DNA from: Escherichia phage RudolfBernhard_Bas96
Direction: 5' to 3' (one strand)
DNA length: 64,000 bases
Sequence record: PQ850623.1
Made by a program: the position numbers and the translations under genes. Of this stretch, positions 4,211 to 60,494 are shown piece by piece. Below the pieces are notes generated by a model. The model searched no databases. It saw only the letters and a program-made list of their open reading frames with translations, and was not told where the DNA came from. Position 1 is the first letter of the stretch, and every line of letters starts with the position of its first letter.

Positions 4211-4555
4211 ATGAGTAAAGAATCAACAATCGCTGGACTGGAACATCGACTGGAAGCTGCTAAAGGTGCAGTTGCACATGCAGAAGATGTACGTAAACTT
4301 CTGGAGAACCCACTGTTCCGTAAAGTAATCCTTCGCCAGTTCTGTACTGAAGATTGTGCACGTTACGTGCAAGAGTCTGGTGACCCACTGCTTGAAGCAA
4401 ATAACCGTGCAGATGCATTGAACATGGCTCAAGCTGCTGGTCACTTACGTCGTTGGCTCGACCTCGCTATTCGTATGGGCGAAAACGAAGCTGATGTTAT
4501 TCTACAGGTAGAAGAAGAACTCGACGCAGTTCGTGCTGAACCTGAAGACGAATAA
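4211..4555 (+). CDS. Hypothetical late protein
   Basis: 114-aa ORF, ATG start, tightly packed between portal and scaffold-like gene. Confidence 0.5.
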   Translation: MSKESTIAGLEHRLEAAKGAVAHAEDVRKLLENPLFRKVILRQFCTEDCARYVQESGDPLLEANNRADALNMAQAAGHLRRWLDLAIRMGENEADVILQVEEELDAVRAEPEDE

Positions 4556-4574
4556 TTAACCGGAGATATTTCCT

Positions 4575-22800: not shown

Positions 22801-24620
22801 ACCTGGTTGGTCAGCGTAAAGATGAAATGGCTAAAGCCAAGTCTGATATGCGTGCAACCCTGAACCAGTACAAAGGGCATATCCCTAGTGAGACTAAACA
22901 GAGTGTTAATCTGATTGTTGCTGAAGATAGTCAGTTTGCTGATTTGATTGAGAAGTCCTATGTACGTCTGGGTACTTATCAAGGTAGCTCTGCTAATCGT
23001 GGTCCGGCACGTAGTTACTACTTTGCACCAGTACAGGCACAGGCTCCTTTCTCACAGGGTATCCTACAGAACGTTCGTAATACTGCTGGTGGTGTAGACC
23101 TCGGCACAGGCTTTACGATGGGTTCGATGGTAGCTGGTCGTATTACTGACAAGCCTTCCGTAGACCGTATTACTAAAGCACTGGCTCGTGGTGAACGTGG
23201 TAATGAACCACTGCTGCCTGTGTATGATGACAAAGGTAATGTAGTTGCTTATGAGCAATCTATTGACCCCAACATGCTGAAGCACATTGAAGGTGAAAAC
23301 CACCTTGCCCGTGCAATTGGTGTATGGCGTGGTCGTCAGGTGGAAGAAGCTAAGGCTCAGCGTTTCAACGATATGCTGATTGAGAACCTGCATAGCATGT
23401 ATGAGAATGACATTAAGATGTCTGCCTCTAACAAGTCCCAGTATGTGAACCTTCTTGGTTCTAAACTGGATCCAGTAACTGCTGATGCTCTTAAGCTAAT
23501 GAACAGTGAAACCCGTCAGAAAGCAGAAAGTCTGTTTGGTGAGGGTGAACTGTGGGTACGTCGTGACATGCTGAATGATGCACTTGGTTATCGTGCAGCT
23601 TCTGTTGGTGATGCCTGGTCTGGTAATTCTCGTTGGTCCCCGGAAACTCTGGATACTTTCAAGAAAGCTATGCTGGGTGTATTTGGCAACCGTGCTTATA
23701 AGTACACAATGGGTGGAGAGAACCTGGTTCAAAACTTAGTTAAAGAAGCCAAGACTCTGATTGTAGTTAAGTCAGTAGTCGTACCTGCTGTTAACTTCTT
23801 GGCTAACCTTTACCAGATGGTTGCTCGTGGTGTACCGGTTAAGAACATTGCTAAGAGCATTCCACAGAAGACTGCTGAGATTAACCAGTACCTTAAATCT
23901 CGTCTGCGTCAGGTAGATGCAGAAGCAGAATTACGTGCAGCTACTAACCCGAACCAGATTCGTAAACTTAAGGCTGAGATTCAGTCCATTACTGATAGTC
24001 ATAAGCGTATGAGTATCTGGCCTCTGTTAGAAGCCGGTGAGTTCTCTTCTATTGCAGATGCTGGCATCGGTCGTGATGACATCCTGATTACTGAGGGCAA
24101 ACTTCATGAATACATGGAAAAACTGGCTGATAAGTTACCTAAGTCTGTACGTACTGCCGGACGCTATGCACTTATCACTAAAGATACTGCTCTGTTCCAG
24201 GGTATCCAGAAGACAGTTGAGTACTCTGACTTTATCGCTAAAGCAATCATCTATGATGAACTGACTCAGCGTAAAGGTAAGACTCGTGAAGAAGCACTTG
24301 GACGTGTAACGGAAGAGTTTGTTAACTATGACCGTCTGCCGGGTCGCTTCCGTGGGTATATGGAAAGTGTTGGTTTAATGTGGTTCTACAACTTTAAGAT
24401 TCGTTCAGCTAAGGTTGCAGTGTCCATGATTCGTAATAACCCGGTACACGCAGCAATGGCTATGTTGGCTCCAACCCCTACCATGTTTGGTAACGTTGGT
24501 CTGCCTATTCAAGACAACATCTTTAGCATTGCTGCTAAAGGTAGTCTGGATTACTCATGGGGCTTTGGTCAGGGGCTTCGTGCACACAACCTGAACCCTT
24601 GGATGAACCTGGTAAACTAA
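13821..24620 (+). CDS. Virion-encapsidated RNA polymerase (vRNAP, N4 gp50-like)
   Basis: Single 3599-aa ORF (track begins at TTG 13803; ATG 13821 follows AGGAAA RBS); central region has a T7-like motif B (KRGIAKNPLTITIYGSGARG); size is diagnostic of N4-like phages. Confidence 0.85.
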   Translation: MSTFDRLAGFADSITNAKQVDVSTATSQKQAAQGQSPFQLTPENAYNLQTGRVGNLGIGAFEPGSLQADFTQASPLEIINKYGNEQGLQILNSRANAADVVRQDLSKQRTNAEAFGDTLSGVGLGVANTLGGIAALGTGLVNDNAGASIASGMDWLNEGVHNLQSDALNATRKVVQNQNQISAQKNQKLYEQDIKNGESDLVASLSRIGRDAFDSVANTLDNGMAVSDGLSEGVGSLFTGGPLIRGVSALGKVMVGGDKAVKGITLAAGLGSRPAQVALSAGRVAAPAIAIGGMEAGGAYQQTASEIMKMSHQELASKSPVYQQHIADGLSPDEARRQAASETGIIAAGLTAPVAAATGPLVSRFELNPLKVGSLAGAGSNMLRETVEEGIQSGFGQFAQNTAIKGNVDASRDTLKGVGEQAGLGALYGFGSAGVAQAPGATVKAVGASAGPALRTTLAGASLVGKTLAKAASPLTNILVQRGEEVAKRNEQASPVADATVNAAAQEAAAQAEQAQATVQEAVDAMDITPEEKAAATQYAADLTQAMKFDPVELEQANPVIREAVSGSTNRVEAIQKMADLVNTAEDPNVQMEAAIQMYDNIMSMDSFINRDPGALANLEQGSPAAAIVDQFSGLMANVQNTPKVLRAFRAIHSMIQEQAEAGKLKATEEANQAQANNIAMAADVSPEVLDADSVNMVLKHASEGKITLGNRQRAALQSAAALLQGAREFDAKAEELGLRPQDIVSKQIKTDESRSNEGQYSALQHAKRIRSAYNSGNFDLASAYLSDFMKFAQHMQNKVGALNEHLISGNADKNKSVHYQALSPSREWVRSRTGLGVNPYDTKSVKFAQQVGLEAKTVADIANALATAYPELNVSHVKVTPLDSRLDKPAAQVVKEFRQGGLDATQSQQTNEPVNQVDETPAPVQEDTTTVQPKAKPVVENKTAPTKETSPKTEEVSTTKPETVDATLTNEDTIEQPTESERDAYVKENTISQDTLNKYGDRRESPWLFADGTVVGSNGDHISLSDVFGHDGYRDMSLDTGAIRSTFYKGSEQPFVSLQLFDNQKLTAEQFNTVQSFVEANNAQILVGVDTSGRNTNNVEKDEVSLAQLKAGYTVGGKPLSEMETVFPVYNNEKTPNQFLKAFSLPEEPKSRTIGSESPLADIKQALSSAARFEAFTQKENNALTGDVLKRYQDLMDFGETLKTTLSERLAKFLANKNVGKRFAEGTEANRWVGGKLLNIVEKDGDTFKFNDQLLETAVLAGLQWRLTATQNAAIKDMKDVAAITGVEASLLPEGILAEFENAQTLVEATSSLAQKIESYWGLNRNPNAPLGYTKGIPVAMATEILSSLIEMGAVTETMLDVSEIDPDSNKTVGLYTINKLADKDPINNFPTAIEEAVLVNPEEKMYFGDDIPSVAQTQLRNPAVKNTPEQKAALKAEQATEFRVHMPMVNFYEALGRDNILELMGAGTLNPDLLNKNNAKSLEGKNLSVSMAYDSLFGLINQLKEQENGLDTPIHYGYNMTRVGRMQMLGKNNPQSSKLVREAILPTFSTIDLSNENSQAFSDFQLGLAQALGIKVHKMSREAMAEELTKALEGKLKPAVDMMVEFDKSGYLPTDAVDILKTSLGDNKSFVALMALMEYARYLNSDDRANFTTPLYVEADGVTNGPINAMVLMTGGKFTSDWIKNTAKGGLFFGRAGKTMNEHCSIDDNVDLYEASTNGLQFYLNELRTTYRNNIPVMSQMNHLQKLMDLFIKDFNLNEDGTLDLKRGIAKNPLTITIYGSGARGIAGKMVSAITDTIYERLSDVLQARAADPSISPAMAMFGKEAASEADAQAMLNTFLTSMEALTGKIPAKRKGKLFIKEVDGALTGELDPQEFTVSGDALKNLQENMLHFFVEPMRQSIRFTVGEGLMHSTENLQKATQIQSLVLQDMFQQAVQAKLAEKEKDPSWKKGDFLTQKELNEIQKSLSPLAPMIETGSQTFYIAGSENTDVANQVLATNLDDRMRVPMSIYAPSQAGVAGIPFMTIGTGDGMMMQTLSTMKGAPKNTLKIFDGMNIGINDITDASRKANEAVYTSWQGNPIKNVYDSFSKFMKNVDFNKLSDKTIDDIARSALDFEQLSHISRVEGDRQYKIDMIKNSGVNLIERNLRNIALGVDIRHKVMNQVQTTVDQMAAVGAPYVNNGKISLEGLTVDQQVAKLNELFDAELNKRRDAVRAAKAEPVKEVPVMEQVGRVLKSGVRLLSNTAITKLGKEMTPEQQAVLKEVQKSLAAKDYKVVYGTPAQLDAYAIEKNITRPAPEDIEAAEAGNAYGWTNFDDKTIYLVTPSLETLVHELVHASTFESVLAHYEGTPNEAVQNIEDLMNQFRTLDVKNESPAVREAYADALNTINGHLSNGFIEPAMAKAAALNEYMAWGLTNRELIGKQKKTTALKTMVQSVYEAIKRLVFGRKKAPANADDMFSGLLFNSSVVMRGQAPTAAVSKDTTLFHNKAYGDNTRLEELGQTFDKLITNYIGSEPVQQVIRKGKFSDAVVNATKVTRDVQAHGFTMNMQEQRLFTNIVAALATEAAISPAALSRAQEYYAHVTKNLTVEAFMADPDSTNPADRYYAQQKFDTIMGANNIEFDAQGHSSLLPTFVGLAMVSEEVRNVLANIPVMKADKKSGNTIDAMLTNIGTAAMSSLNARVAGDTKATNVQEGMDALAQTIMQTSLNAQSFYDSVATPSGNAIDRANQYLVDSIDVLSTRALESAREVAANTKNPLVKGAAHAAQLVAAIATEKNGAIVAEGVMAAMNQGKVWQPFHDLVNDLTGRTKSNASVYDLIKAVRAQVQADRQQFREHLPTTIASKFSRKLTNDEWKAMYTGMGKTDLAVLRDTMSLAEIRDLLSDQKIVDREVNKLEADLQKQAGRNWPLISRKSKQLAQYMINGTVGNNLLRNATAISRMLGERQAARSTVDVAQLDKLITLYALEAMNKSDREMLSSLAQAEVDGMDFATSYLVGQRKDEMAKAKSDMRATLNQYKGHIPSETKQSVNLIVAEDSQFADLIEKSYVRLGTYQGSSANRGPARSYYFAPVQAQAPFSQGILQNVRNTAGGVDLGTGFTMGSMVAGRITDKPSVDRITKALARGERGNEPLLPVYDDKGNVVAYEQSIDPNMLKHIEGENHLARAIGVWRGRQVEEAKAQRFNDMLIENLHSMYENDIKMSASNKSQYVNLLGSKLDPVTADALKLMNSETRQKAESLFGEGELWVRRDMLNDALGYRAASVGDAWSGNSRWSPETLDTFKKAMLGVFGNRAYKYTMGGENLVQNLVKEAKTLIVVKSVVVPAVNFLANLYQMVARGVPVKNIAKSIPQKTAEINQYLKSRLRQVDAEAELRAATNPNQIRKLKAEIQSITDSHKRMSIWPLLEAGEFSSIADAGIGRDDILITEGKLHEYMEKLADKLPKSVRTAGRYALITKDTALFQGIQKTVEYSDFIAKAIIYDELTQRKGKTREEALGRVTEEFVNYDRLPGRFRGYMESVGLMWFYNFKIRSAKVAVSMIRNNPVHAAMAMLAPTPTMFGNVGLPIQDNIFSIAAKGSLDYSWGFGQGLRAHNLNPWMNLVN

Positions 24621-24622
24621 AT

Positions 24623-24657
24623 TAAAAAAGCCCCTCAAATGAGGGGCTTCTATTTTA
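24623..24657. terminator. Bidirectional terminator between convergent late (+) and early/middle (-) units
   Basis: Stem AAGCCCCTC/GAGGGGCTT with AAAT loop, A-run on the left and T-rich run on the right. Confidence 0.7.
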
Positions 24658-24948
24658 CTTCTTAACTACAAGAATTTTTCGATCAGTTTTGATTACATAA
24701 TCAATATTGTTGGCTTCAAAATGAATATCTACAAAATCAGCGTGTACACTTTGATAAGTACCATTGTTTCTACGAATACCTAACTTCTTACAGAGAACCA
24801 TTGCAATTCCTGTATCTGGTACAGCAATCCAATTGTTACCATCAATTTGTACATCACAACCAAAGGTTAAACGATGCCTTGCCTTACGGTGTACATGCAA
24901 TCCACCAATACGCTTTGGTATAAGCTGCCCTTTCTTAAAGAGTTCCAT
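24655..24948 (-). CDS. Hypothetical protein
   Basis: 97-aa ORF, last gene of the leftward unit. Confidence 0.4.
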   Translation of the reverse strand: MELFKKGQLIPKRIGGLHVHRKARHRLTFGCDVQIDGNNWIAVPDTGIAMVLCKKLGIRRNNGTYQSVHADFVDIHFEANNIDYVIKTDRKILVVKK

Positions 24949-24956
24949 ATAGTTTC

Positions 24957-25484
24957 CTATAGAATTATCCAGTCATCTGCTAATACATCCGATTGGGATG
25001 GAACCCAAGGCATAAACTGGTCATCAGCAGTTTTGATGCCTAACCATGGGCGAGGCTTCAGTTCATCAGCAAATCTTGGACGTTCTAGACTACTGCTGTT
25101 CCATTCTTCAGCAGCAACGTACTCAATGTACATTCCCTTACCGTTCCAGCCTTTACGGGCTAGTTTGAAGCCTGCCTTAAGAATCTCTATGGCATGACCA
25201 AACGTGCAGCCTTTGTCCACATCGTGGTATGCAGCTTCAAATGCAGCCCTCGGTGACCAGCTAATATAACCACGGAATTGCTCATGGTTAGGTTTAGAAT
25301 CCGGGTATTCTACTAAGTAACCTACTTCTAATGGATCTTCATTAGCAGGCACATCCCATCCACGAAGTTTGCAATATGTTTCCTTGTTCATCCGGAATCC
25401 ATTTACACACTTGGTTCCAATGTAGTTGGTGAAGTGAACTTTAATTTCTTCTGACGTAACTACCTCAAATGATAAAGCCCTCAC
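24957..25484 (-). CDS. gp49-like N-terminal region fused to DUF2829 (Tad2-like) domain
   Basis: 175 aa with GTG start; C-terminal half has ARKGWNGKGMYIEY and PWVPSQSDVLADDW, the two DUF2829 signature blocks as I recall them; N-terminal half resembles the neighbouring 126-aa protein. Confidence 0.55.
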   Translation of the reverse strand: MRALSFEVVTSEEIKVHFTNYIGTKCVNGFRMNKETYCKLRGWDVPANEDPLEVGYLVEYPDSKPNHEQFRGYISWSPRAAFEAAYHDVDKGCTFGHAIEILKAGFKLARKGWNGKGMYIEYVAAEEWNSSSLERPRFADELKPRPWLGIKTADDQFMPWVPSQSDVLADDWIIL

Positions 25485-25575
25485 TAGGAGGGCTTATTTT
25501 GTTTTGGCTTCGTGAGCCTTACCACATGTCGGGTAGTTCAGTACCTTTCGGTAAAAACTACCTTACACTTGTTTA

Positions 25576-25956
25576 TTAAATGGTGCAACCACCACCATCA
25601 CAGGTATTGTTTTCTGCAAAGGAAGCCAGAGCCTTAGCAGTCTCCTCTTTCTCATGCAGTGCCTGACGTAGCAGGTAACCCTCTATTTCCCAAATCTTAT
25701 CGAATGCATTTTCATATGCATACTGACGGCCTTTCTGCTCATCATAGATGGCCGGGTCAACACAGGCAGATTCGCCTGTAACTTTGAAGCCGTTTTCCAG
25801 GATGATAACACAGTAGGTTGTCAGGCCCAGGTTAGCCAAATCGTCTGCCGGAAGTGCAGAAGGGTTAACGAAGGCAGACTTTACTGCATCAGCACCGTTG
25901 AAATAGTAGACGCTCTTAATCTTAGCTTCGATTGATTCTTTACTTACTGTTGCCAT
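25576..25956 (-). CDS. gp49-like family protein (hypothetical)
   Basis: 126 aa; shares motifs with the N-terminal half of 24957-25484 (CV..NGF...E..C); C-terminal CDGGGC. Confidence 0.4.
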   Translation of the reverse strand: MATVSKESIEAKIKSVYYFNGADAVKSAFVNPSALPADDLANLGLTTYCVIILENGFKVTGESACVDPAIYDEQKGRQYAYENAFDKIWEIEGYLLRQALHEKEETAKALASFAENNTCDGGGCTI

Positions 25957-26098
25957 TATTAGCCTCGTAGAGTGGTTTGAGTTTGTATTTAAACATGACT
26001 GCGTTGTTATAGGCTACGCTACCTGCAAACACCAAAGACTTACGTCCTCGGTTATCCGTTACCTCATAGGCATACGGGGTTAAAATTAGGTCAATCAT
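25940..26098 (-). CDS. Small hypothetical protein
   Basis: ORF track 25940-26125 starts at TTG; internal ATG at 26098; weak RBS. Confidence 0.25.
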   Translation of the reverse strand: MIDLILTPYAYEVTDNRGRKSLVFAGSVAYNNAVMFKYKLKPLYEANNGNSK

Positions 26099-26123
26099 AT
26101 AAATCGTCCAATGAGTAGTTCTC

Positions 26124-26161
26124 AAATAAAAAAGTCCCCCAGAGTGACGGCTCTGAGGGAC
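26124..26161 (-). terminator. Rho-independent terminator downstream of the tRNA-like cluster
   Basis: 11-bp stem GTCCCCCAGAG/CTCTGAGGGAC (one mismatch) followed on the - strand by TTTTTTATTT. Confidence 0.6.
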
Positions 26162-26410
26162 TTAGTACTATTTACCCATAGCTGGGAGGCTTGTATGAAC
26201 TTTATGAGTACCAGGTTCAGGTACGCTTAACTGGTGTGCTACTTGGATTGATAGTCCACTCATATCGCTCAGGCTAGGATTTAAGGAGTTCCTATTCTCC
26301 AGCGAAATTCCCGTCGAGGGGAATAACAATACATTAGCAGCCACTGGACTGTCTTACCAGTGTTGTCTTTAGAGTGCTATGCAATCAGGACTATGTTACT
26401 GCTGAATGGG

Positions 26411-26495
26411 TGTCCACTACTGGATTTGAACCAGTGACCCCAGACACCTTGTTCTCTCGAAGCTTTCCTGTGCTCTACCACTGAGCTAAGTGGAC
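26411..26495 (-). tRNA. tRNA-like gene, about 85 nt, isotype unassigned
   Basis: Minus strand reads acceptor GTCCACT/AGTGGAC, canonical D-arm GCTC-AGTGGTA-GAGC and T-arm ACTGG-TTCAAAT-CCAGT; the 35 nt between them did not fold into a standard anticodon arm by eye. Confidence 0.45.
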
Positions 26496-26994
26496 ATAAT
26501 AGAATGAGCTGGGGCAGGATACCTACCCCATCCAACCAAGTTACTCTGTATCTGAAGAACTATATTAAGTAGTTCATTTTACAGCAATAAGTAATTAGCT
26601 ACTGCTTAACCAGGATGATTAGACGTGCTCATATTGGGTGAGTCATGCCAGGCTCTAACTGGCTCCTTCTTCGCAATCCTTACATACCCCTACATAATTA
26701 TTGCGTTAAGCTTTTTTGTTTAAGTTTAAGTGAAGGCGTTCTTGCTGACTCATAATTGGGTGGGCGTTTGACGAATGACTAGTTCGTTACTACCCGTTTG
26801 CCATAAGTACCTGGCGACTATGGTTTGAGATGGGAGTCCGAGTCCTGTACAGCCTTACCGTCTCCACATTGGCAGCGTATCTAGAATAGCACTTCCGGGT
26901 ACGGATTTAACTGTTACATCTCAAATATGGTAGGGGCGTCCAGAGGTTTCATCTGGTACTTACGCCGTCGTATTTACGACTTACCCCCATTGTT

Positions 26995-27075
26995 TGGTTG
27001 CAGGTGGAGGAGTTGAACCTCACTTCACATACAGATTGGGAAACCTGTAGCATAACCGTATGCTCACCCACAATA
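26995..27075 (-). tRNA. tRNA-like element (3' half convincing, 5' boundary uncertain)
   Basis: Minus strand ends ...GAGG-TTCAACT-CCTCC-ACCTGCA-A-CCA (T-arm, acceptor 3' strand, discriminator, encoded CCA); no complementary 5' acceptor found at the expected distance. Confidence 0.3.
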
Positions 27076-27200
27076 ATTCTTCCAATTCAGAGTAGCACTG
27101 TTGCAGTCGTCACTGCCCATAGGTGAGGACTCGAACCTCACAATACCGTATGGCTAACGTCGCTGAACCTTTTCGCGTTCTATGCAGTGCTACTTTGAAT

Positions 27201-27285
27201 TGGTTACCAGTGAAGGATTCGAACCTCCGGTTGGAGTCTATAGCTTACCGCAGCAGCCCTCCAATCTAGCGGTGTCACACTTAGT
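27201..27285 (-). tRNA. tRNA-like element (3' half convincing, 5' boundary uncertain)
   Basis: Minus strand ends GGAGG-TTCGAAT-CCTTC-ACTGGTA-A-CCA; the only perfect 5' acceptor complement (TACCAGT) lies 124 nt upstream. Confidence 0.3.
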
Positions 27286-27326
27286 CCAAACTTGAACATG
27301 CCAAGCCATCTCGTGCAACTGGTAAT

Positions 27327-27405
27327 TGGTTCCGGCGTCTGGACTCGAACCAGAACACTCATGCCGGGCACGACACTAGTACCTACACCGGAATAGTTGC
27401 CAGGG
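27327..27405 (-). tRNA. tRNA-like element (3' half convincing, 5' boundary uncertain)
   Basis: Minus strand ends TCTGG-TTCGAGT-CCAGA-CGCCGGA-A-CCA; nearest acceptor complement (TCCGGTG) gives only 66 nt. Confidence 0.3.
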
Positions 27406-28210
27406 ATTCCACCTGGCTCTATCTGTTTTTATAGTCACTCAGATATTGTCTGGACTTTGACCATCTGGGGATTCGAACCCTCATCTCGGTGGCCAACCGT
27501 GCATTTGCCTCATGCTACTCTGGTCATAGTTGGCCCCCGTTTCTAATACATGGACGGGGGAACTCCACGGTCGTTTGATAATCAGGACGACTCACTCCTG
27601 ACTGAGGTTACGCTGTTAGGCGACCATCAGATACGCTTCTTCGTTTGCATTTATGTTATTGGTTCGTTTCTAAAAAACCGCATAATCGCTACGAAAACTA
27701 TCGGAGAGTGTACTAACTCTGGGCCACGCTTTTGTGGACATCGGCCTACCTTCCACAGCTAATCAGCTAATACACTCACCGATAGCCCGTAATAGGGGGG
27801 AGGGGACGAATCCTCCCTTTATACCCTATATTGCATGTAAGACCTAACAATTCGATGTTGTAGACGGATAGGCTTATGCTTACCGGCATTAAACTCCCGC
27901 CCCCTTAGTGGGCTGGGTTAATTAGTATACTCAACATTGAGCAGTTAGTTTGATAAGGGATCTGAAGCCTTATCCCAAAGATACCAACCTTTGGGATATA
28001 GCCTAAGATTCAGAAATGGCCCCTATAGGAGAGGCCATTGATTAACCCGAATGTTGCTTTACATTTTCTGTGATAACCGGTTCTTAAAATAGTCTGTCTG
28101 ACGGATGGGGGGCCACCCCTAGCGTCAGTGCCATACGGCAAAGATTAAGTTAAGAAAGGTTATGATAGGAGTTCCTATCTCAAAGGATTCTGACAGAACC
28201 CTTCACGATA

Positions 28211-28477
28211 TTAACTACTCTTTTTCAATGCTTCAACTTCGCCATCTTTATACCAAGCATATGGTATTAAGATTTTGCAGCCTTCTGAATCAATGTGGAA
28301 TGCTTTGTTTACTTCAGCAGGTTCTCCACCCATGAAAGAACTAACCTTTCCATTGAGCCAGTGAATAGTAAATTTGTTCATATTAACCCCGGTTGAACCA
28401 ATGGACTGGGGAGAGTATTCCAATCCACTGGTTCGGTTGTTGTTATTCTGGCGGCTTGTCACCACCGTGTTTACCAC
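28211..28477 (-). CDS. Hypothetical protein
   Basis: 88-aa ORF, first gene left of the noncoding region. Confidence 0.4.
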   Translation of the reverse strand: MVNTVVTSRQNNNNRTSGLEYSPQSIGSTGVNMNKFTIHWLNGKVSSFMGGEPAEVNKAFHIDSEGCKILIPYAWYKDGEVEALKKSS

Positions 28478-28612
28478 TGCATTTCCACAGGATAATGACA
28501 GTGATGATAAAAGCTATGTATGGAGCCGACACGTCTATAATCCTGACCAGTAGTAGCATCAGGACTATAAACACTACCACACCTAGCAGCAGCTTCTGAG
28601 CCACCTACCAGA

Positions 28613-29063: not shown

Positions 29064-29618
29064 TTATGCCTTTATTAATTTAATGAGATTCTGGAAAGCT
29101 GGTAGATTTACCCCAGCGTGGATTGCACCGATTGCATCAGCTAAGTGCTCATTCTTATTCAGAAGTTTACCTTTCTTATCCGTGAGCCAGTTGGCTTCAG
29201 GATAGATGGCATGAGCAGCACGAATCATCGTGTCTTTGGATGCTGTTTTATCACCGACCAGTGCAAGTTTGTTTTCAATTGGGGATACTTCAAAGATTGG
29301 ACAATCCAATGCACGGAATGCACCGATTAGTCCTACGCATACACCATAGGACTTCATTCCGTTAGCAGACTGAGAGCCTACTGGTACTTCTACGAATACT
29401 GCTTTAGCAGACCGTAACCATTCCTCACAACCAAGAAACAAATCATGGGCAGCTTGTATATCTTTGGAGTTGGTTCGAACTTGTTTGTTATGGTCAACTT
29501 CAGTTTGAACCAGTTTAAGTTCGACCTGCTCGAAGACACCGGACTCAATGTCCAGCATCCCACGAGCTAATCCCCAATTGCGGAGGCTAATGTCTGCACC
29601 GACAATTGGGATTTTCAT
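29064..29618 (-). CDS. RuvC-like Holliday-junction resolvase (putative)
   Basis: 184 aa; N-terminal IPIVGADISLRNWGLA and C-terminal EHLADAIGAIHAG resemble RuvC catalytic Asp/His motifs. Confidence 0.45.
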   Translation of the reverse strand: MKIPIVGADISLRNWGLARGMLDIESGVFEQVELKLVQTEVDHNKQVRTNSKDIQAAHDLFLGCEEWLRSAKAVFVEVPVGSQSANGMKSYGVCVGLIGAFRALDCPIFEVSPIENKLALVGDKTASKDTMIRAAHAIYPEANWLTDKKGKLLNKNEHLADAIGAIHAGVNLPAFQNLIKLIKA

Positions 29619-30421
29619 TAACGCTTACCGAACAGAGATTTACCACCAGCAGGAGTAGTACCTGTGCCAGCACCTGCACCAGGTTTAGGAGGCAAGCCAC
29701 CTTTACCGTTACCACCAGTAGAACCCTTGGTCTTATCACGGGTTTTACCTTTGTTCTTTTCCAGCCATGCTGCATAGAATACAGCCAGTTCTGGAGTCAG
29801 TTCTTTCTCAGCCTTCTCTGCTTCCTGAGCCTCGACGACTGTGACCAGCAGTTCCGGGTGAAACACTTTCTGAATCTCGTTTACTTCTCGAGTTTCACCG
29901 GAGTCAACGTAACCGTTGTCACCTTTAACCTGCTTAGCTTCCAGAACCTTTTCCAGAGCGAAGGTAACAGTCTGACCAACCAGATCAACTGGAACCATGA
30001 CAGACTTGTTGGTTTCTGCTTTCAGATCGAAGTCATAGACTTTAACAATCTTCTCTTCGAAGTCTGCATCTGGCAGTTCACAACCAGTAGCCATAAGCAT
30101 CATGTCATTAATGACAGTGTAACCAGGCAGGAAGTATTCTTTACCATTCTTCTCGTAAGTCGGCTTATTGCCTTTAGCATTACCAGAAGTAAAGTACACC
30201 TGAGCACGGAACTCACCAGCATCATTGCCGTCAGAACCTTTCAGGTTTTCGATGATTAACTGCATCCAGTCTGCACCAGAGTCAGCTTTACCTACGTAAG
30301 CTACTTTTACAGTACCGGTGTAGATATCGGATTCTTTAGCACCGAAGCCACCCCCACCAAGAGTGTCTTTTGCAGCTTCAACGTTTTTGGTCTTTTCTTT
30401 CAAGTTACCGAACAGTGACAT
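29618..30421 (-). CDS. Single-stranded DNA-binding protein candidate (N4 gp45-like size and position)
   Basis: 267 aa (N4 SSB is about 265 aa); Gly-rich flexible C-terminal tail; assignment by size and position only. Confidence 0.3.
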   Translation of the reverse strand: MSLFGNLKEKTKNVEAAKDTLGGGGFGAKESDIYTGTVKVAYVGKADSGADWMQLIIENLKGSDGNDAGEFRAQVYFTSGNAKGNKPTYEKNGKEYFLPGYTVINDMMLMATGCELPDADFEEKIVKVYDFDLKAETNKSVMVPVDLVGQTVTFALEKVLEAKQVKGDNGYVDSGETREVNEIQKVFHPELLVTVVEAQEAEKAEKELTPELAVFYAAWLEKNKGKTRDKTKGSTGGNGKGGLPPKPGAGAGTGTTPAGGKSLFGKR

Positions 30422-30461: not shown

Positions 30462-30905
30462 TTAAGCGTAGTATTCAGCCAGATGGTCTAAGAGTTTTTG
30501 GGCATCATTGTCGATATAAGTCTGAGATTTATCGAACATACCCATCGGTGAACGAAGTCGTTTACCAACAGACTTCTTGGTTGGACGAGTCTGGAATACG
30601 TGCTTATAGCCTAAGTCACGTTCTTCTTCCGTAATATCAAGCATCTTGTTGCCATACTTTTCCAGTTCTTTGATGTCTACACGTTCTGCGTAAACCACTG
30701 TAGAGAAGTAAGCCTCAAGGCCATTGTTCTTCAGTGAACCCTTAACTGGGATGAATGTTTTCATCACACCAGCAGCTTCGTCGAGTTCATCTTTGGCATG
30801 GGCAGTAATAATTACTGGCTTACCAAACTTAACGACTTTCTGTTGCAGCAGTATTTTAAAGAACTGCGCAAAGTCTCCCCACGATACGTTCAAGAGTGTA
30901 CGCAA
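30462..30905 (-). CDS. C-terminal segment of a split P-loop ATPase (possible exon 2)
   Basis: 147-codon frame with no ATG at its 5' end (track start is TTG); lies downstream of an HNH ORF that follows the Walker A/B half. Confidence 0.4.
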   Translation of the reverse strand: MRTLLNVSWGDFAQFFKILLQQKVVKFGKPVIITAHAKDELDEAAGVMKTFIPVKGSLKNNGLEAYFSTVVYAERVDIKELEKYGNKMLDITEEERDLGYKHVFQTRPTKKSVGKRLRSPMGMFDKSQTYIDNDAQKLLDHLAEYYA

Positions 30906-31050
30906 CTACACTCCCAGCAGCATTACCTGCATCTGCATGTTTCCATGCAGTCCAGACTATATCTTCATCCTCGTTAATTACGATAGGATGCTGACCGCTT
31001 CGAGCAGCATTAGCTTCTGCCCTACTCCATTACTGGATAGTCGTTGCACC

Positions 31051-31542
31051 TTACTTAATCTTTTGTATAGCATGGGGTAAGCCATGCTCAATGATATAGG
31101 CATTTCTCGCTTCCAGAGCTTCAACCTCGGAATCAAAATTACCTACAAAGATTCTTTCATTACCATTGCAGATTCTTGCTGACCATTTTTTCTTAGTGGT
31201 ATTTAAACCTATTCCTAAGTAGGTAGCTTTACTGGTTATTCTTTTTCTGGAATTAATGGCCTGAGTTGTTCTAGTTGCCCATCTCAGATTTCCTGGTACA
31301 TACCCCAGTGAACCATCTATTCTGTCTAAAGTAAGACCCAGCCTTTCCCTGTCTGCATAACCATCTAATGACTCTAGATAGGCAGCAAACACTTTGAAGT
31401 CAGAGAACTCTTCTGCTCTAGTTATCCCCCTAGCCCCATAGTTTTTATAACTAGCGTGCTTAGGGTTGTCACATCTCTGTTTAATGGTTAACCATGTGTA
31501 ATACAGAGGATGTAATTCATTACCGAATCTTTTCTTACTCAT
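31051..31542 (-). CDS. HNH-family homing endonuclease with AP2 DNA-binding domain (degenerate HNH)
   Basis: 163 aa; LDRIDGSLGYVPGNLRWAT (HNH_3-like with His replaced) plus C-terminal AP2-like YLGIGLNTTKKKWSARI...FDSEVEALEARNAY; flanked by about 130-145 bp of noncoding sequence on each side. Confidence 0.55.
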   Translation of the reverse strand: MSKKRFGNELHPLYYTWLTIKQRCDNPKHASYKNYGARGITRAEEFSDFKVFAAYLESLDGYADRERLGLTLDRIDGSLGYVPGNLRWATRTTQAINSRKRITSKATYLGIGLNTTKKKWSARICNGNERIFVGNFDSEVEALEARNAYIIEHGLPHAIQKIK

Positions 31543-31674
31543 GTTTGTAACTCCGTTAATAAAAACCGGAGAAAGATTAAGTCTTGGCTCAGGATTGCCC
31601 TCGTCTTTACGTTAGGGGTTTCCCTGAATTCAATCAGTTATCATTAATCATTACTGACTAACGGGCCTTAGTAG

Positions 31675-32010
31675 TTAAGCCTTTTGGGTATTAGCAGATG
31701 GCAATACATATTGGGATTCCAGCATGTCCATCATAAAGGTAGCAGAGTCGATAATGATACCATCAACATCATCTGCCATTTCACCACCAGGTGATGCAAC
31801 ATCAAATGCTTCCCAAATCTGGTATGGGTCTTCAATGTTGTAAGTATTGAACTTGTTACGGAAAGGCAGACGTTTACCTGCTTCAGTATTCAGATAGAGC
31901 CAGCGTTCCTGGTTCCGGATATTACGCAGTGATGCTGATTTACCACTCGCTGAGAATCCTGCGATCAGGATTAGCTGAGTGTTCATATCATTGGAGATTT
32001 CTTCGGACAT
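31675..32010 (-). CDS. N-terminal segment of a split P-loop ATPase (possible exon 1)
   Basis: 111 aa; Walker A GFSASGKS and Walker B-like GIIIDSATF; too short to be a complete ATPase. Confidence 0.45.
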   Translation of the reverse strand: MSEEISNDMNTQLILIAGFSASGKSASLRNIRNQERWLYLNTEAGKRLPFRNKFNTYNIEDPYQIWEAFDVASPGGEMADDVDGIIIDSATFMMDMLESQYVLPSANTQKA

Positions 32011-32066: not shown

Positions 32067-34220
32067 TTACTTGCCAGCGAAGCGTTTAGCCACGGTGACC
32101 ATTACGGTTGAATTCAATTCATCATCCGGCAATGGATTAGCCAGTTTCTTATTGAATGAGTAGACGGCTTGCTGTACTTGAGCAAAGTCCCAACCACTGT
32201 CTACTAATGCCAGTGCGTATTTAATCATTTGATTATTACGATTACCGGAGGCAATACGACCAGCGAACCAACGCTCCAGATTGTCTAACGACTGTACTTC
32301 CTTCATCTGGTTCTGGAACTGCTCGTTCTTACTGGTACGGGGAATAAAGTCACGTACATCCAACAGATTCGCATCAAGATTGTAATGATAGGAACCAGTC
32401 TCACAGGACATCCACTTCTTGGCTCGTTGGTTAGCAGACTCATCCGTTTCGAATGGTAGCCAAGCCATAACGTTATTCATGAACTCTTTGTATTCCTCAG
32501 TGTCGAGGTGTAGCTCATAGTTCATTGGAATAATCAGACGGAAGCGGTTCTCTTCTTCAGTATGACGCTTAGTGGTATAGGTCATGAACTTATATTCCTT
32601 CATCAGTTCATGGCACGTATGCAGTGGTACTCCTCCATCACAGTCAATAACAATCATGTTAAATCCTGGGATAACGTTCTCTTCAGAACGATGCCCATTC
32701 TTCATGTGATGGTTAACCCAGTGCATACCGGGAGCTTGGGTTAATACATGTAATTGGTCAAACGGTACTCGTTCACCAACATAGTCATAAGCAAAGCTAT
32801 CACTATATGCCACTATCATCTCATTGGTGTCAGTCTCTTTCAGAGTCTCACCACGGAAGAATTCAATACCCTCATTGAAGGTCTTCTTAATAATGATGTG
32901 CTGTTTGTAACCCCATGCTGTAGCAAGAGTCATCATCTCATTACGAGCTGCATTACCACTCTTATAGAACGGTAATGACTCCAGCAAGTCAGCATGAGTC
33001 ACTTCTTTACCTACGGAGGCAATGTACTTAGCCAGCTTCACATAGGCTTTCTCACGATTGAGAATACCCTGGAATGCTGCCCCGGATTCTTCTACGAGCA
33101 GGATCGCTTGTTTAAGGTGAGACATCTCAATGAATGAACTCTGGTCAACAAACGCTAGTGCACCTGCCAGCTTAAGAGCCTTAAAGTAACGGTGGGAGAT
33201 TTCAGCCTTACGAATTTCTTCGTGGTCAGCCATAGCTTCTGCTTTCTTCTCACAATCAATTTTGTAAGTAATCAGAGCAATTCCCACTGCATCTTCCACA
33301 ACCATCTTAAAACCAAACAGGTTTGGGTCAGCCAGACTATGGAAGTGGTTAGCCCATTTACCAAGGGACTGTACGTTATCCTGCTTAATCAGGTTACGGT
33401 AGATTTCTTCCGGGGTCAGCGTTGCATGTGCTCGCTTGTCTAAATGCCCGATGGCAAACAGACAACGACGTGCATACCCTGTATCAAGGAAATCATAGAA
33501 CTGATCTTCAGTTTGCCCACCATCCAACAGCTTACTCGGAGTACCGAACAGCAGCAGGTTAGCAGGAGTCTTACCATCCAGTTCTTCACCACGAATACTT
33601 TCAGCAGTGTTCTTGGTTAACTTCTGTTTTACTTTCCCCTGGTCATATAACTCAAGGAACAGGTTAAGCACTTCAACGTTGGCAATGAGGTTAGAACCAA
33701 TCTCATCAATCTGTAAGTTAATAGCACCACAACCAGCCATAAGCAGCTTGTGACGAAGCTGTTTTACAGCAGGTGCTGTACCAGAGTCGAATGTGAATGG
33801 GAATGCCCCAGCACGTTTATACTCTGCTTCAACTTTATCGAACTCATCATTCTGGTCAGTACCTTGACGAGCAGCACGTTCGTTAGCAATCTTCCATAAA
33901 CGGTCATTTGCAATGACGGGCATGGTGTCTTCCATAAAACGTTTACGGAAGCCAGTCATGAACCCGTCTTCAATAATATTTACCGAGTGACCTTTACCGA
34001 AACCAGATGTAGCCAACGCCATAGCGTAGATGTTTACCGGCAGGTCACCACGGTCTTTAGTTACGATGGTTGCACCCATGCAGGATGCCATTTTAGCCAA
34101 GAAGTAGGCTACTTCGACACGGAAGAATCCCCGGTCGTTATTCTGGGTTTTATTGCAGAGCACATCTACGATTTCTTCAATCGCCGGATGGTGCACTACT
34201 CCGGTAAGGTCAATACTCAT
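32067..34220 (-). CDS. Primase-like replication protein (putative DNA primase)
   Basis: About 717 aa from ATG 34220, which overlaps the upstream stop as ATGA (track start 34277); large replication-module protein between nuclease and ATPase genes; function by size and position. Confidence 0.35.
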   Translation of the reverse strand: MSIDLTGVVHHPAIEEIVDVLCNKTQNNDRGFFRVEVAYFLAKMASCMGATIVTKDRGDLPVNIYAMALATSGFGKGHSVNIIEDGFMTGFRKRFMEDTMPVIANDRLWKIANERAARQGTDQNDEFDKVEAEYKRAGAFPFTFDSGTAPAVKQLRHKLLMAGCGAINLQIDEIGSNLIANVEVLNLFLELYDQGKVKQKLTKNTAESIRGEELDGKTPANLLLFGTPSKLLDGGQTEDQFYDFLDTGYARRCLFAIGHLDKRAHATLTPEEIYRNLIKQDNVQSLGKWANHFHSLADPNLFGFKMVVEDAVGIALITYKIDCEKKAEAMADHEEIRKAEISHRYFKALKLAGALAFVDQSSFIEMSHLKQAILLVEESGAAFQGILNREKAYVKLAKYIASVGKEVTHADLLESLPFYKSGNAARNEMMTLATAWGYKQHIIIKKTFNEGIEFFRGETLKETDTNEMIVAYSDSFAYDYVGERVPFDQLHVLTQAPGMHWVNHHMKNGHRSEENVIPGFNMIVIDCDGGVPLHTCHELMKEYKFMTYTTKRHTEEENRFRLIIPMNYELHLDTEEYKEFMNNVMAWLPFETDESANQRAKKWMSCETGSYHYNLDANLLDVRDFIPRTSKNEQFQNQMKEVQSLDNLERWFAGRIASGNRNNQMIKYALALVDSGWDFAQVQQAVYSFNKKLANPLPDDELNSTVMVTVAKRFAGK

Positions 34221-35197
34221 GATGGAAAATATCTCTCTCTTTGTTTGCAAATAGATGCGACAGGGCAGTAAAGACATCTTTTAACCTGTCCCTCCACGAC
34301 CTTGATAGCACCCTTGCCACCTTTTTCAGCCATGAAGATACGAGCAGATGCCATATCGTCAAAGTTTTTGGTACTTCTGGCTCCAGGTACATCTACCTTA
34401 GAAGCATCAGAGAAGTATTTGAACTGTGGCTCTGTTCGCCACAACTCCTCGTCAGTACATTCCGGGATTTCCTCTTCCGGTGCATCCCAGTACTTTTCGA
34501 TTAGGTGAATCTTCTCCTCTACCCAACGCTCAGTTTTCTCGACAGACAGCAACGGAATATCCTTATGCATAATGCGATTAGCAGGATAGTTCGGATTGCT
34601 ATTAGCCATGTGTTTCATGAAGTCAGTGAAGATGTAGTTAATACGGATTACATCCTCAGTAATGATGTCGTTGTGAATCCAACGGTACAAGCTGCCTTGC
34701 ATCTTGTGTTCATCATCACGGGAACCAGCAACCCAGGAATAGGTTGAGGTAGACTTGAAGTCTTGTAACAGACCTTCTGTTACGATGTCGAATTTACCAC
34801 CAATAGTCCATCCCTTAACCTGCTTGGTTCCACGCTGTTCAATGTAGATTGGGATAAGGTCAGGATTAGCAGCAAAGTCTGCTTTGGTTGGGTTAATGAC
34901 TACTGCATCAATTACTCGCTGAGGATAACCTAGCTTCTTCAATGCAGTCTTATGGCCTAGCTTCCAGGCTTTCTCGATAGAATCATGTAAGCCAGTACCC
35001 ATTGATGTGGAGACGAAATCCATGACATCAATTGACTGGTCACTAAAATCTACACGATGCTTCATGACGATTTGCTTAATAGGCTTAAGCAATGTAGTAG
35101 CAGACAGGTACTTAGGATTGTCTACGTAATCGTACTCATCATGTAATAGCCATACAGCCAGAGCCAGTGAGACATCATGATTGTTGGTTACCTTCAT
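34217..35197 (-). CDS. PD-(D/E)xK-type nuclease with C-terminal Cys cluster (RecB/Cas4-like)
   Basis: 326 aa; GKFDIVTEG...QDFK fits a D...(D/E)xK core; C-terminal CLYCPVASIC. Confidence 0.4.
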   Translation of the reverse strand: MKVTNNHDVSLALAVWLLHDEYDYVDNPKYLSATTLLKPIKQIVMKHRVDFSDQSIDVMDFVSTSMGTGLHDSIEKAWKLGHKTALKKLGYPQRVIDAVVINPTKADFAANPDLIPIYIEQRGTKQVKGWTIGGKFDIVTEGLLQDFKSTSTYSWVAGSRDDEHKMQGSLYRWIHNDIITEDVIRINYIFTDFMKHMANSNPNYPANRIMHKDIPLLSVEKTERWVEEKIHLIEKYWDAPEEEIPECTDEELWRTEPQFKYFSDASKVDVPGARSTKNFDDMASARIFMAEKGGKGAIKVVEGQVKRCLYCPVASICKQRERYFPS

Positions 35198-49341: not shown

Positions 49342-49554
49342 TTACTCATCTAAAGCTTTACGAACGTAACCACGTACTGAACGATAGCTTTCTTTTGCAG
49401 TTACAGTTCGTCCATCAATGAGATGAATTACAGCACCAGCCGGAGTTTCATCTACATCTACTACGTTAGTTGCAACAATAGTTTTACGCTGGGTACTGTC
49501 AACAGGAGTTACTTGAAATACAGACATGTTGTTTCCTTTAGGCATTTCTGCCAT
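49342..49554 (-). CDS. Hypothetical protein
   Basis: 70-aa ORF. Confidence 0.4.
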   Translation of the reverse strand: MAEMPKGNNMSVFQVTPVDSTQRKTIVATNVVDVDETPAGAVIHLIDGRTVTAKESYRSVRGYVRKALDE

Positions 49555-50104
49555 GGTTGGGGTTATAACCGAAAAGTATTTCGGCTTCTTTTCTTGTGGC
49601 TACTGCGTCATCTAACTCAGCAAACCATCCCAGGTGGATTTTATTCCCATTATCATAAATGGAAACATTCCATAAATTATGACGTTTACTATAGCTTACT
49701 CCGTGGTAACCACTTGTATTATTCGAGCTTAATGCCCTATTTTTTAAGTTATCTGACCTTGACCGGCTAAATAAATTAAAATGCCTGTTATTAGTGCGTA
49801 CACCATCATCATGGTCTATATCTTCTGGCTCAGTACCATGAAGCATTTTCCAGATAATACGGTGAGCATAGTAAAACTCACCATTTAATGTTCCGCGCAA
49901 ATAACCATTTTTAGATAATGAGGCTAGTGCAGGTTTCCCTGCCCATGCAGAATTCCATACATTAGCTACATGTTCTGGACTTCTTAGTGGGTTGCTGTTA
50001 AATGTCCACTCTGGTCTTACCTTCCAGGTTAATCCCCCAGTTAGTGGGTCATAATCTAAGCAAGCTAGTAACAACAAGCGATTTGGTAAAACCTTTGCTT
50101 TCAT
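49538..50104 (-). CDS. HNH homing endonuclease with AP2 domain
   Basis: 188 aa; HNH core IDHDDGVRTNNRHFNL and AP2-like GYHGVSYSKRHNLWNVSI...GWFAELDDAVATRKEAE. Confidence 0.7.
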   Translation of the reverse strand: MKAKVLPNRLLLLACLDYDPLTGGLTWKVRPEWTFNSNPLRSPEHVANVWNSAWAGKPALASLSKNGYLRGTLNGEFYYAHRIIWKMLHGTEPEDIDHDDGVRTNNRHFNLFSRSRSDNLKNRALSSNNTSGYHGVSYSKRHNLWNVSIYDNGNKIHLGWFAELDDAVATRKEAEILFGYNPNHGRNA

Positions 50105-50107
50105 TTT

Positions 50108-50614
50108 TTACTTACTTTCCCTAGCCTCTACCGGCATATTCGGTTGATTATTGTACTTGCCATTGTAATTAGCAGGCTCTTGAACCAGATGAAATAATAC
50201 TTGAGCTATCCCAGCACCAGCCGGGATATGCAGTTTCTTGCGACCTTGATAGACCAGTTCGAGGGTAAGATACCCTTTCCATCCTGGTTCTATTACGGTA
50301 TTGAACACTGATAATGCACGCCTTGCCCAGGTAGATTTATCGTGAACGATTGCTACACAGGAAGGGGACATGTTGAACTTCTCAATTGCTGAAGCCAATG
50401 CGAATTTACCGAAGTGGCGTTTAACAACCCCAGCATCGACAGTCTTCACCATTGGAATCAACCCAAATAAGCGATAGAAGGTGATGTCTTGTTTGATACG
50501 AATATCATAACCGGCTTCACCTAATCCATAACTTACACCATGCTCGGATACCTTACGGTCTGGTACATCCAGCAATTGAGATGAACGGTATAGAGAATTA
50601 CCATTAACAACCAT
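50108..50614 (-). CDS. dcd: dCTP deaminase-like (dUTPase superfamily)
   Basis: 168 aa; VIEPGWKGYLTLELV resembles the dCTP deaminase/dUTPase signature. Confidence 0.5.
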   Translation of the reverse strand: MVVNGNSLYRSSQLLDVPDRKVSEHGVSYGLGEAGYDIRIKQDITFYRLFGLIPMVKTVDAGVVKRHFGKFALASAIEKFNMSPSCVAIVHDKSTWARRALSVFNTVIEPGWKGYLTLELVYQGRKKLHIPAGAGIAQVLFHLVQEPANYNGKYNNQPNMPVEARESK

Positions 50615-60205: not shown

Positions 60206-60394
60206 TCACTGGTTCCTCTTTGCAAACTCTTCTGCTTGTTGCTTGTAATACTGAGTCATTGCTTTTTTGTGTTTAACACTGGCAATGAGACACTCGATAG
60301 TAACGAATGGCAGCTTAGCAATAAGCAACCATTTATGACGTAACTTCCAGCCTAGAAAGTAGAAGATTACACAGAAAGCGATGAAGTCTAACAT
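60206..60394 (-). CDS. Small membrane protein
   Basis: 62 aa; N-terminal TM helix FIAFCVIFYFLGW. Confidence 0.4.
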   Translation of the reverse strand: MLDFIAFCVIFYFLGWKLRHKWLLIAKLPFVTIECLIASVKHKKAMTQYYKQQAEEFAKRNQ

Positions 60395-60494
60395 GGTTAA
60401 TTCCTCTTCTAAGATAGCTCTATTGAGATAGCTTTACTTTCTAGGGACTCTTCGTCGAAAACCCCTGAAAAGTAGAACTTATCTTATCGTCTAG

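Follow-up and report, generated by a model that had tools for sequence, protein, structure and literature searches.

Evidence for a mobile group I intron in the replication gene gp44 of a G7C-like coliphage

Between positions 30,462 and 32,010, on the minus strand, the DNA of Escherichia phage RudolfBernhard_Bas96 (sequence record PQ850623.1; the stretch of 64,000 nucleotides (nt) analysed is called the window throughout) carries one gene that is interrupted by an insert, namely gp44, an N4-type replication gene for a Sak4-like P-loop ATPase. With a probability of about 0.92 we consider the insert to be a group I intron that is mobile, has an IA2-like architecture and carries its own homing endonuclease. 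This reading is based on the exact boundaries of the insert, on the reading frame restored upon its removal, on a fold with covariation, and on the distribution of the element among relatives. The first-pass annotation of the region, made from the letters of the sequence, had proposed an ATPase gene split into two open reading frames (ORFs) by an endonuclease ORF, possibly as part of a group I intron. This proposal is borne out, as the insert could be located, the group I intron model RF00028 of Rfam matches both flanks of the endonuclease ORF, and the fold covaries among copies.

Boundaries of the insert and the restored frame of gp44

The phage of the window is a G7C-like coliphage (Gamaleyavirus, N4-like Schitoviridae), as placed by megablast with a 1.9-kb query around the gene. 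The full query is covered by five records that represent three phages (SP5M, PhAPEC7 and PW8; 94–97% identity), and the remaining relatives listed match it in two pieces amounting to 58% of its length, so that the middle of the query is absent from them. Apart from differences in endonuclease genes, the window is collinear with the G7C genome at 90–96% identity, and gp44 of G7C is one unbroken gene for an "AAA family ATPase" of 250 amino acids (aa). Relatives do not encode the two halves as separate genes with their own start codons; rather, the gene is uninterrupted in them.

Alignment to these intact homologues fixes the insertion point to the nucleotide. Where G7C reads CAGAAAGCC directly followed by TGGGGAGAC, the window reads CAAAAGGCT, then 796 nt, then TGGGGAGAC. 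In codons, CAG AAA GCC/TGG GGA GAC of G7C stands against CAA AAG GCT/TAACTAC...GTATCG/TGG GGA GAC of the window (slashes mark the junctions). The insert includes the TAA stop codon of the first ORF as well as the first eight codons (LRTLLNVS) of the second, so that the TGG at 30881 is the beginning of exon 2. When 32010..31678 is joined to 30881..30462, a protein of 250 aa results that is identical at 250/250 positions to G7C gp44 (AEL79655.1), and joining PhAPEC7 at this junction likewise gives YP_009056177.1, the product of the joined coding sequence (CDS) deposited for that phage. Earlier estimates of about 770 nt for the insert and about 258 aa for the joined protein have to be replaced by these values. 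What had been read from the ORFs themselves is correct: the upstream one encodes an N-terminal ATPase half with GFSASGKS and GIIIDSATF, the downstream one is a frame of 147 codons without ATG that begins with TTG after an in-frame TAG, and the noncoding flanks of the endonuclease ORF, put at about 130 and 145 bp, measure 132 nt (31543–31674) and 145 nt (30906–31050).

The Walker A (GFSASGKS) and Walker B (IIIDSATF) motifs are both encoded in exon 1, and the two exons match consecutive parts of the profile PHROG 124, "Sak4-like ssDNA annealing protein" (Table 1), an arrangement far beyond chance; residues 1–8 of the downstream ORF lie outside the match. The suggested kinship with Sak4/AAA_24-like ATPases is supported by PHROG 124 across both halves; Pfam AAA_24 reaches the C-terminal half only and stays below threshold (21.2 vs. 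27 bits).

The base before the insert is U and its last base is G in 10/10 copies examined, with the terminal G (omega-G) of group I introns located at 30882 in the window. Exon 1 ends in AAGGCT in 8/8 intron-bearing alleles examined at that stage of the analysis, and intron-less alleles differ at the same synonymous sites (AAAGCC, AAAAGT, AAGGCA, AAGGCG, AAAGCT); an AAGGCT common to the intron-bearing alleles is what pairing in P1 together with co-conversion would predict. The distribution of the element is patchy, as it was found in three phages among the Gamaleyavirus isolates of the phage collection and in 4 of 27 IMG/VR loci.

The stop codons of the insert in the host frame, the lack of a reverse transcriptase and the lack of any other Rfam match speak against a group II intron or an intein. 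The insertion site lies in a conserved part of gp44 (0.79 vs. a mean of 0.68; W112 and G113 are invariant), and the idea that it marks the most conserved stretch was dropped, since it is not the top-ranked one. Inspection by eye of the sequences around the endonuclease ORF for likeness to the exon junction, the signature of an endonuclease invasion, gave nothing convincing.

The predicted ribozyme fold and its covariation

A covariance-model search, proposed with the first annotation, placed RF00028 on both sides of the ORF on the minus strand, at 31168–30933 (48.4 bits, E = 1.2e-10; the well-aligned portion is the 3' core) and at 31687–31343 (32.3 bits, E = 8.1e-6; 5' core), each match being below the gathering score. 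The conserved junction stretches (AAUUCAGGGAAA, CAAUCCUGAGCCAAG, GGUGCAACGACUA and GAUGAAGAUAUAGUCU) agree almost exactly with the Rfam consensus, and an Rfam scan of the whole window revealed no other intron cores. A full P1–P10 fold of the IA2 type can be drawn, in which the ORF would be looped out of P6a (Table 1), and folding of the 3' part without constraints recovered P7–P9.2 (z = −3.46). P7.1 and P7.2 are inserted between P7 and P3', as is usual for the IA-type architecture of IA2 introns in phages (class criteria summarised in PMC3984707). Both helices are present in all copies, and the IA2 assignment follows these summarised criteria. The 3' strand of P6b (CGGAG) is at the same time the ribosome-binding site, 8 nt ahead of the endonuclease ATG, and the last ~13 nt of the ORF (31063–31055, just 5' of the stop codon) provide the 3' strand of P6a.

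The octamer AAAAGAUU occurs twice on the minus strand, at 31533–31526 and at 31065–31058, just inside the endonuclease ORF at its start and at its end. At the ORF start the octamer is able to form a shorter alternative P6a/P6 pairing, which is the one used by the second Rfam match; this pairing might arise while transcription of the ORF is still incomplete, or it might reflect the way in which the ORF came to lie in the loop.

Table 1. Features of the gp44 locus and of the predicted ribozyme (intron nt i corresponds to window position 31678 − i)
Feature	Window position	Strand	Intron position	Remarks
Exon 1 of gp44 (Sak4-like/AAA_24 ATPase)	31678..32010	−		111 codons, end CAA AAG GCT; collinear with G7C gp44 codons 1–111; PHROG 124 positions 37–141
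Group I intron	30882..31677	−	1–796	796 nt; opens with in-frame TAA, last nt G; exact absence from G7C and most relatives, RF00028 flank matches, covariation
Exon 2 of gp44	30462..30881	−		139 codons and stop, start TGG GGA GAC (W-G-D); PHROG 124 positions 143–262
P1	31664..31681	−	U1 / A10-GGCC14	exon GGCU (31681–31678) and U1 with A10-GGCC14 (31668–31664); U.G wobble at 5' splice site
P10			C7–A9	exon-2 UGG with CUA of the P1 loop
5' ribozyme segment	31543..31663	−		P2, P3 5', P4, P5/P5a, P6 5', P6a 5', P6b
P2			16–23 / 28–35	GNRA loop, GUAA
P3	31637–31631 / 30997–30991		41–47 / 681–687	
P4			51–56 / 84–89	
P5/P5a			61–64, 67–69 / 74–76, 77–80	
P6			90–92 / 628–630	3' strand GGU
P6a	31580–31572 / 31063–31055		98–106 / 615–623	encloses ORF
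P6b hairpin	31571–31551		107–111 / 123–127	
Endonuclease ORF	31051..31542	−		163 aa, looped out of P6a; PHROG 374, AP2 domain
3' ribozyme segment	30882..31050	−		P6 3', J6/7, P7 5', P7.1, P7.2, P3 3', P8, J8/7, P7 3', P9, P9.1, P9.2, terminal G
P7	31042–31037 / 30960–30955		636–641 / 718–723	
P7.1, P7.2				between P7 5' strand and P3 3' strand
P8			688–697 / 705–712	
P9				GAAA loop
P9.1, P9.2				3' of P9
omega-G	30882		796	
ORF, 111 aa	31675–32010	−		GFSASGKS (Walker A), GIIIDSATF
Frame of 147 codons	30462–30905	−		no ATG; TTG directly after in-frame TAG
Primase	32067–34277	−		736 aa; gene order in window
SSB	29618–30421	−		next after the 147-codon frame
RuvC-like resolvase		−		next after SSB

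Among the copies of the window, SP5M, PhAPEC7 and PW8, variable sites are rarer in the ribozyme flanks (3/304 nt) than in the ORF (28/492 nt; Fisher p = 5e-4). Extra copies at the same site were found in IMG/VR (L025, 97%; L026–28, 80% identical and 794 nt long), and in the close-set alignment that includes them nine compensatory pairs compare with 0 in six slid controls, 99.8% of the cells are paired and no helix is broken. Homologues of the endonuclease led to seven further contigs, N4-like in size, whose gp44 is 46–69% identical to that of the window. In each of them the primase gene is followed by an ORF of ~105 aa, the endonuclease, a C-terminal ORF and SSB, with the insert at the KA/WG codon boundary, and RF00028 matches the flanks also there.

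For an alignment of ten copies, all from the same site and with host gp44 proteins that are 45–98% identical, the ORF was deleted and the remainder aligned with MAFFT. In this alignment 94% of the cells pair, double changes occur in 46/77 pairs vs. 6–12 in slid controls, and the covariation score is 0.499 vs. 0.055–0.092 in the controls, with 0/500 shuffles reaching the observed values. Pairs with double changes are found in P3 (3), P7 (2), P7.1 (2/3) and P7.2 (5/6), while P4 is invariant. Examples are CUGAUUG/CGGUCAG vs. UCCAUUG/CGGUGGA in P3, GACUAU/AUAGUC vs. GAUCAU/AUGAUC in P7, and the series GCC/GGU, GCU/AGU, GCG/CGU and GCA/UGU in P6. All ten copies have the U.G pair of P1, and its remaining pairs co-vary between exon and intron, the exon/guide combinations being GGCU/GGCC, AGCU/GGCU (L034) and GCGU/GCGC (L039). 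Nearly all cells scored as unpaired arise because MAFFT misaligns variable hairpins (P2 in L035 and L039, the distal part of P5 in half of the copies, and P9.2); these misalignments were left uncorrected, and the covariation counts are therefore conservative. As MAFFT failed to align P6a and P6b, these two helices were judged copy by copy through duplex folding. In every copy the stretch following P6 pairs with the last 15–20 nt of the ORF at −10 to −15.5 kcal/mol, through unrelated sequences, and a purine-rich ribosome-binding site just ahead of the endonuclease ATG is held in a hairpin. The lack of a P1–P9 fold, which had been named together with other findings as a ground for giving up the intron, is thus not observed, as a P1–P10 fold is supported by covariation in ten copies.

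In locus L039 (1832–2651) the junction is shifted by 1 nt, so that the Trp codon provides, with its first base, the U before the 5' splice site. This copy has the guide GCGC, which matches its own exon end GCGU, and two of its P7 pairs are compensated. A further argument for an intron is that two core segments on the minus strand, nt 36–98 (31642–31580) and 616–796 (31062–30882), resemble introns of many unrelated phages, sharing 70–95% identity with stretches, e.g., in the DNA polymerase genes of Ralstonia BOESR1 and Bacillus SPO1-like phages, in Salmonella Vi06, in nrdD of rV5-like phages, in Staphylococcus Twort/K-like phages and in Lactococcus Tuc2009, which suggests that one ribozyme lineage is widely shared across hosts.

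The putative endonuclease of the intron

The protein encoded in the intron matches PHROG 374 ("HNH endonuclease", E = 3.8e-39) and has 338 homologues at E ≤ 1e-5. Of its initial designation as an HNH/AP2 protein the second part is solid, since both a sequence-profile match and a fold match to AP2/ERF domains identify an AP2 DNA-binding domain (PF00847). The first part rests on names in PHROG and NCBI, a marginal profile match to I-HmuI (E = 0.11) and a weak fold match. Direct Pfam and NCBIfam searches with the 163-aa query gave no match, with no Pfam family appearing even at E ≤ 10, Pfam HNH models matched none of 38 homologues, and the N-terminal ~100 residues of the family are covered by no Pfam model. 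Instead of the catalytic histidine of HNH enzymes we find the motif LDRID...N..RW...Q..N, in which Arg74 is invariant in 38 sequences and no His is conserved. The residues R23, C24, Y32, Y35, G36, G39, R74, Y81, N85, Q94 and N97 are invariant in the family alignment and include the R-C and Y..YG.RGI motifs upstream of LDRID. The best fold match outside AP2 is PacI, a real nuclease. We therefore describe the protein as a solid AP2 domain combined with an N-terminal domain that is loosely HNH-like (PacI-like or atypical).

In the window the ORF is intact, and 15–20 synonymous but only two non-synonymous codon differences to SP5M and PW8 indicate purifying selection. The PhAPEC7 copy (L002, 2159–2650) has a TGG to TAG change at codon 88 and the substitution D75G in the conserved DRID motif, with unchanged ribozyme flanks; as the endonuclease is a pseudogene in this phage, its record annotates only an 87-aa "restriction endonuclease".

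It could be asked whether the intron splices while its ORF is no longer an active homing nuclease, being either in decay or in use for another role such as that of a splicing helper or DNA-binding protein, so that the element would now be inherited only vertically. We regard this as unlikely, although more probable than the other alternatives. An invariant Arg at the position of the HNH catalytic His, the failure of the query and 38 homologues to match any Pfam HNH model, and the divergence of the endonuclease, which roughly follows that of the host gene and is compatible with a long vertical association, would all agree with it, and the PhAPEC7 copy demonstrates that decay occurs. However, the intact and apparently selected ORF of the window, the patchy occurrence among near-identical phages (about three Gamaleyavirus isolates and the few IMG/VR loci mentioned above), the AAGGCT shared by the examined intron-bearing alleles as if from co-conversion, and the match to PacI argue against it.

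A different arrangement is present in Vibrio phage 1.097.O (MG592470; L036, 2283–4698), which has an intact gp44 with the site AAGGCT/TGGGG, a free-standing homologue of the intron endonuclease whose ATG overlaps the end of gp44, and a second paralogue after the SSB gene (4231–4698); Rfam detected no ribozyme core at this locus. Collaborative homing and the capture of free-standing endonucleases by introns have been described (Zeng et al., 2009; Bonocora and Shub, 2009; reviewed in PMC3984707), and the occurrence of one endonuclease family both in the gp44 intron and free-standing beside an intact gp44 resembles such cases. An ORF-less intron as partner was not found, and the link between the endonucleases of the Vibrio phage and an intron capture is circumstantial.

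Predicted splicing, comparison with known introns and significance

The intron most likely splices itself out of the replication-gene transcript in the two guanosine-initiated steps usual for its class. In the pre-mRNA the last four bases of exon 1 (GGCU) would pair with the internal guide GGCC and form P1 with its U.G wobble. Free guanosine bound in the P7 pocket would then attack after the U of this wobble, the terminal G (30882) would take its place in the pocket while the short P10 holds exon 2, and ligation of the exons would yield an mRNA encoding, in 250 aa, the same gp44 as in G7C. Ribosomes would be halted at the intron entry by its initial TAA. Since the ribosome-binding site lies in a hairpin and the 3' end of the ORF serves as a strand of P6a, translation of the ORF and folding of the ribozyme probably compete. 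The endonuclease, whose activity and target we infer, would cut intron-less gp44 alleles in mixed infections, and through repair from an intron-bearing allele the cut allele would acquire the intron along with adjacent exon bases (homing). The patchy distribution, the shared AAGGCT flank and the decay in PhAPEC7 fit homing and a cycle of gain and decay.

Several points weigh against a spliced, mobile intron. We infer splicing of the gp44 transcript from sequence comparison. Both RF00028 matches (48.4 and 32.3 bits) singly remain under the gathering score of 50 bits and none passes at gathering, because the 492-nt ORF divides the model. P10 is short (3 bp), and some copies, L035 among them, have a weaker one. 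The canonical HNH histidine is missing, and endonuclease activity is therefore not assured. There is also a precedent within the genus, the g39 insertion of phage 10Gb, which is not spliced and results in two polypeptides owing to an internal ATG that has a Shine-Dalgarno sequence in front of it (bioRxiv 10.1101/542787), and in the window a GGAG-N6-TTG, in frame at codon −8 from the junction, is a conceivable start for a C-terminal fragment. Seen in this way, the insert might be a non-splicing mobile insertion, i.e., an endonuclease gene within a dead or never-active ribozyme-like shell, and gp44 might consist of two cooperating polypeptides; SP5M and PW8 are among the records that annotate two separate ORFs. 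But a dead ribozyme would not hold 46 compensated pairs across hosts diverged to 45% protein identity, nor would it keep the exon and guide of P1 co-varying, and the lower variability of the ribozyme flanks compared with the ORF would be left without a reason. The candidate GGAG/TTG start lies within the P9.2 hairpin and is not conserved, the first start codon in L035 and L040 comes 11 and 22 codons into exon 2, where the invariant W112-G113 would be lost, and no conserved start codon for exon 2 as a stand-alone fragment was found among the copies. Given the selection on the fold and on P1 and the lack of a conserved start, an insert that does not splice is therefore highly improbable. That two unrelated short genes flank a free-standing endonuclease gene by chance has nothing in its favour besides the ORF layout and is refuted by the two halves, which match consecutive parts of one profile and, once joined, are identical to the uninterrupted homologue at every residue. 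Our preferred reading remains a mobile group I intron.

In the td intron of phage T4 the ORF likewise lies in P6a, and an in-frame stop codon occurs early in the intron. Like the gp44 element, td with its I-TevI and further IA2 introns of phages (T4 nrdB, SPO1/Twort-type) are located in DNA-metabolism genes, and phage IA2 introns share with it the position of P7.1/P7.2 between P7 and P3', an ORF in a peripheral helix, the U before and the G at the end of the intron, and the homing model (Hausner et al., 2014; PMC3984707). They differ in that td is another host gene, that I-TevI is a GIY-YIG enzyme in contrast to the AP2 and atypical HNH-like protein found here, and that splicing of gp44 is predicted. 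I-PfoP3I is an HNH-type endonuclease of an IA2 intron in a cyanophage DNA polymerase gene, likewise a phage replication gene (PMC3428280); it is an experimentally characterised nicking enzyme with a canonical HNH motif, whereas the protein of the gp44 intron lacks the HNH histidine and has an AP2 domain.

Nearer relatives are found among N4-like phages. The group I intron reported in PMC5746245 has an HNH-annotated ORF, T before and G at its end, as observed here; it lies in another gene of a phage with another host and is also predicted. In G7C-like phages, the intron in g16 is spliced (bioRxiv 10.1101/542787). The g16 and g39 inserts stem from the same genus, measure ~800 bp and have internal endonuclease ORFs in essential genes, but they occupy other genes and gave no Rfam match according to the authors, unlike the two flanks here with their RF00028 matches (bioRxiv 10.1101/542787). 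Neither insertion is present in the window, whose gp16 and gp39 regions are collinear with those of G7C. PhAPEC7 (vB_EcoP_PhAPEC7, NC_024790/KF562340) has the same element at the same site with 97% identity, and in its record the CDS is a join with exactly our junction, the endonuclease being noted as "encoded in putative intron". It differs from the window by the nonsense codon in its endonuclease gene, which is intact here, and its record is an annotation only, given without structure or evidence. In the literature on PhAPEC7, Gamaleyavirus and Schitoviridae we found no paper on the structure, splicing or distribution of the gp44 intron. With this joined CDS and the introns reported in N4-like phages (PMC5746245; bioRxiv 10.1101/542787), the element is essentially already known.

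Other parts of the window also differ from G7C in endonuclease genes. A free-standing ORF of 188 aa (49538–50104, minus strand) contains IDHDDGVRTNNRHFNL, an HNH_3-like motif of the classical kind, and after it an AP2-like module. This ORF lies within ~600 nt that are absent from G7C, between a dCTP deaminase homologue (50108–50614) and a gp27 homologue, and is probably another homing endonuclease. Four free-standing HNH genes of G7C, gp24.1, gp41.1, gp47.1 and gp2.1, are missing from the window (junctions at ~51780/51797, ~35197/35215, ~28374–28416 and ~60232–60477, respectively). The stretch most diverged from G7C is 24657–27790; within it, Rfam indicates a tRNA of 85 nt at 26411–26495 on the minus strand (54.4 bits, E = 6e-9), and ARAGORN found no tRNA in 24000–28500.

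Phage group I introns carrying homing endonucleases are textbook selfish elements, and this one therefore changes little for the biology. Its wide spread across N4-like phages and the free-standing endonuclease relative beside an intact gene are apparently undescribed. Three of the four public genomes with the element, as well as metagenomic gene callers, present two or three "hypothetical" ORFs in place of one essential replication gene plus intron, an annotation that the exact boundaries correct. It is tempting to go further and to suppose that the gp44 intron is old and widespread in N4-like phages (Schitoviridae), always at KA/WG, and that its uncharacterised endonuclease family (Arg in place of the HNH His, PacI-like fold, C-terminal AP2), which also occurs free-standing beside intact gp44, provides a series from free-standing to intron-captured endonuclease together with a new catalytic variant of homing nuclease; we consider this a tentative and still doubtful extension. 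The chemistry of this family is not explained by the HNH label of the databases. Ten diverged copies at one site make up a clean comparative data set for the co-evolution of intron and endonuclease, which in addition includes a junction shifted by 1 nt with a matching guide, the decay in PhAPEC7, and free-standing relatives beside the intact target gene.

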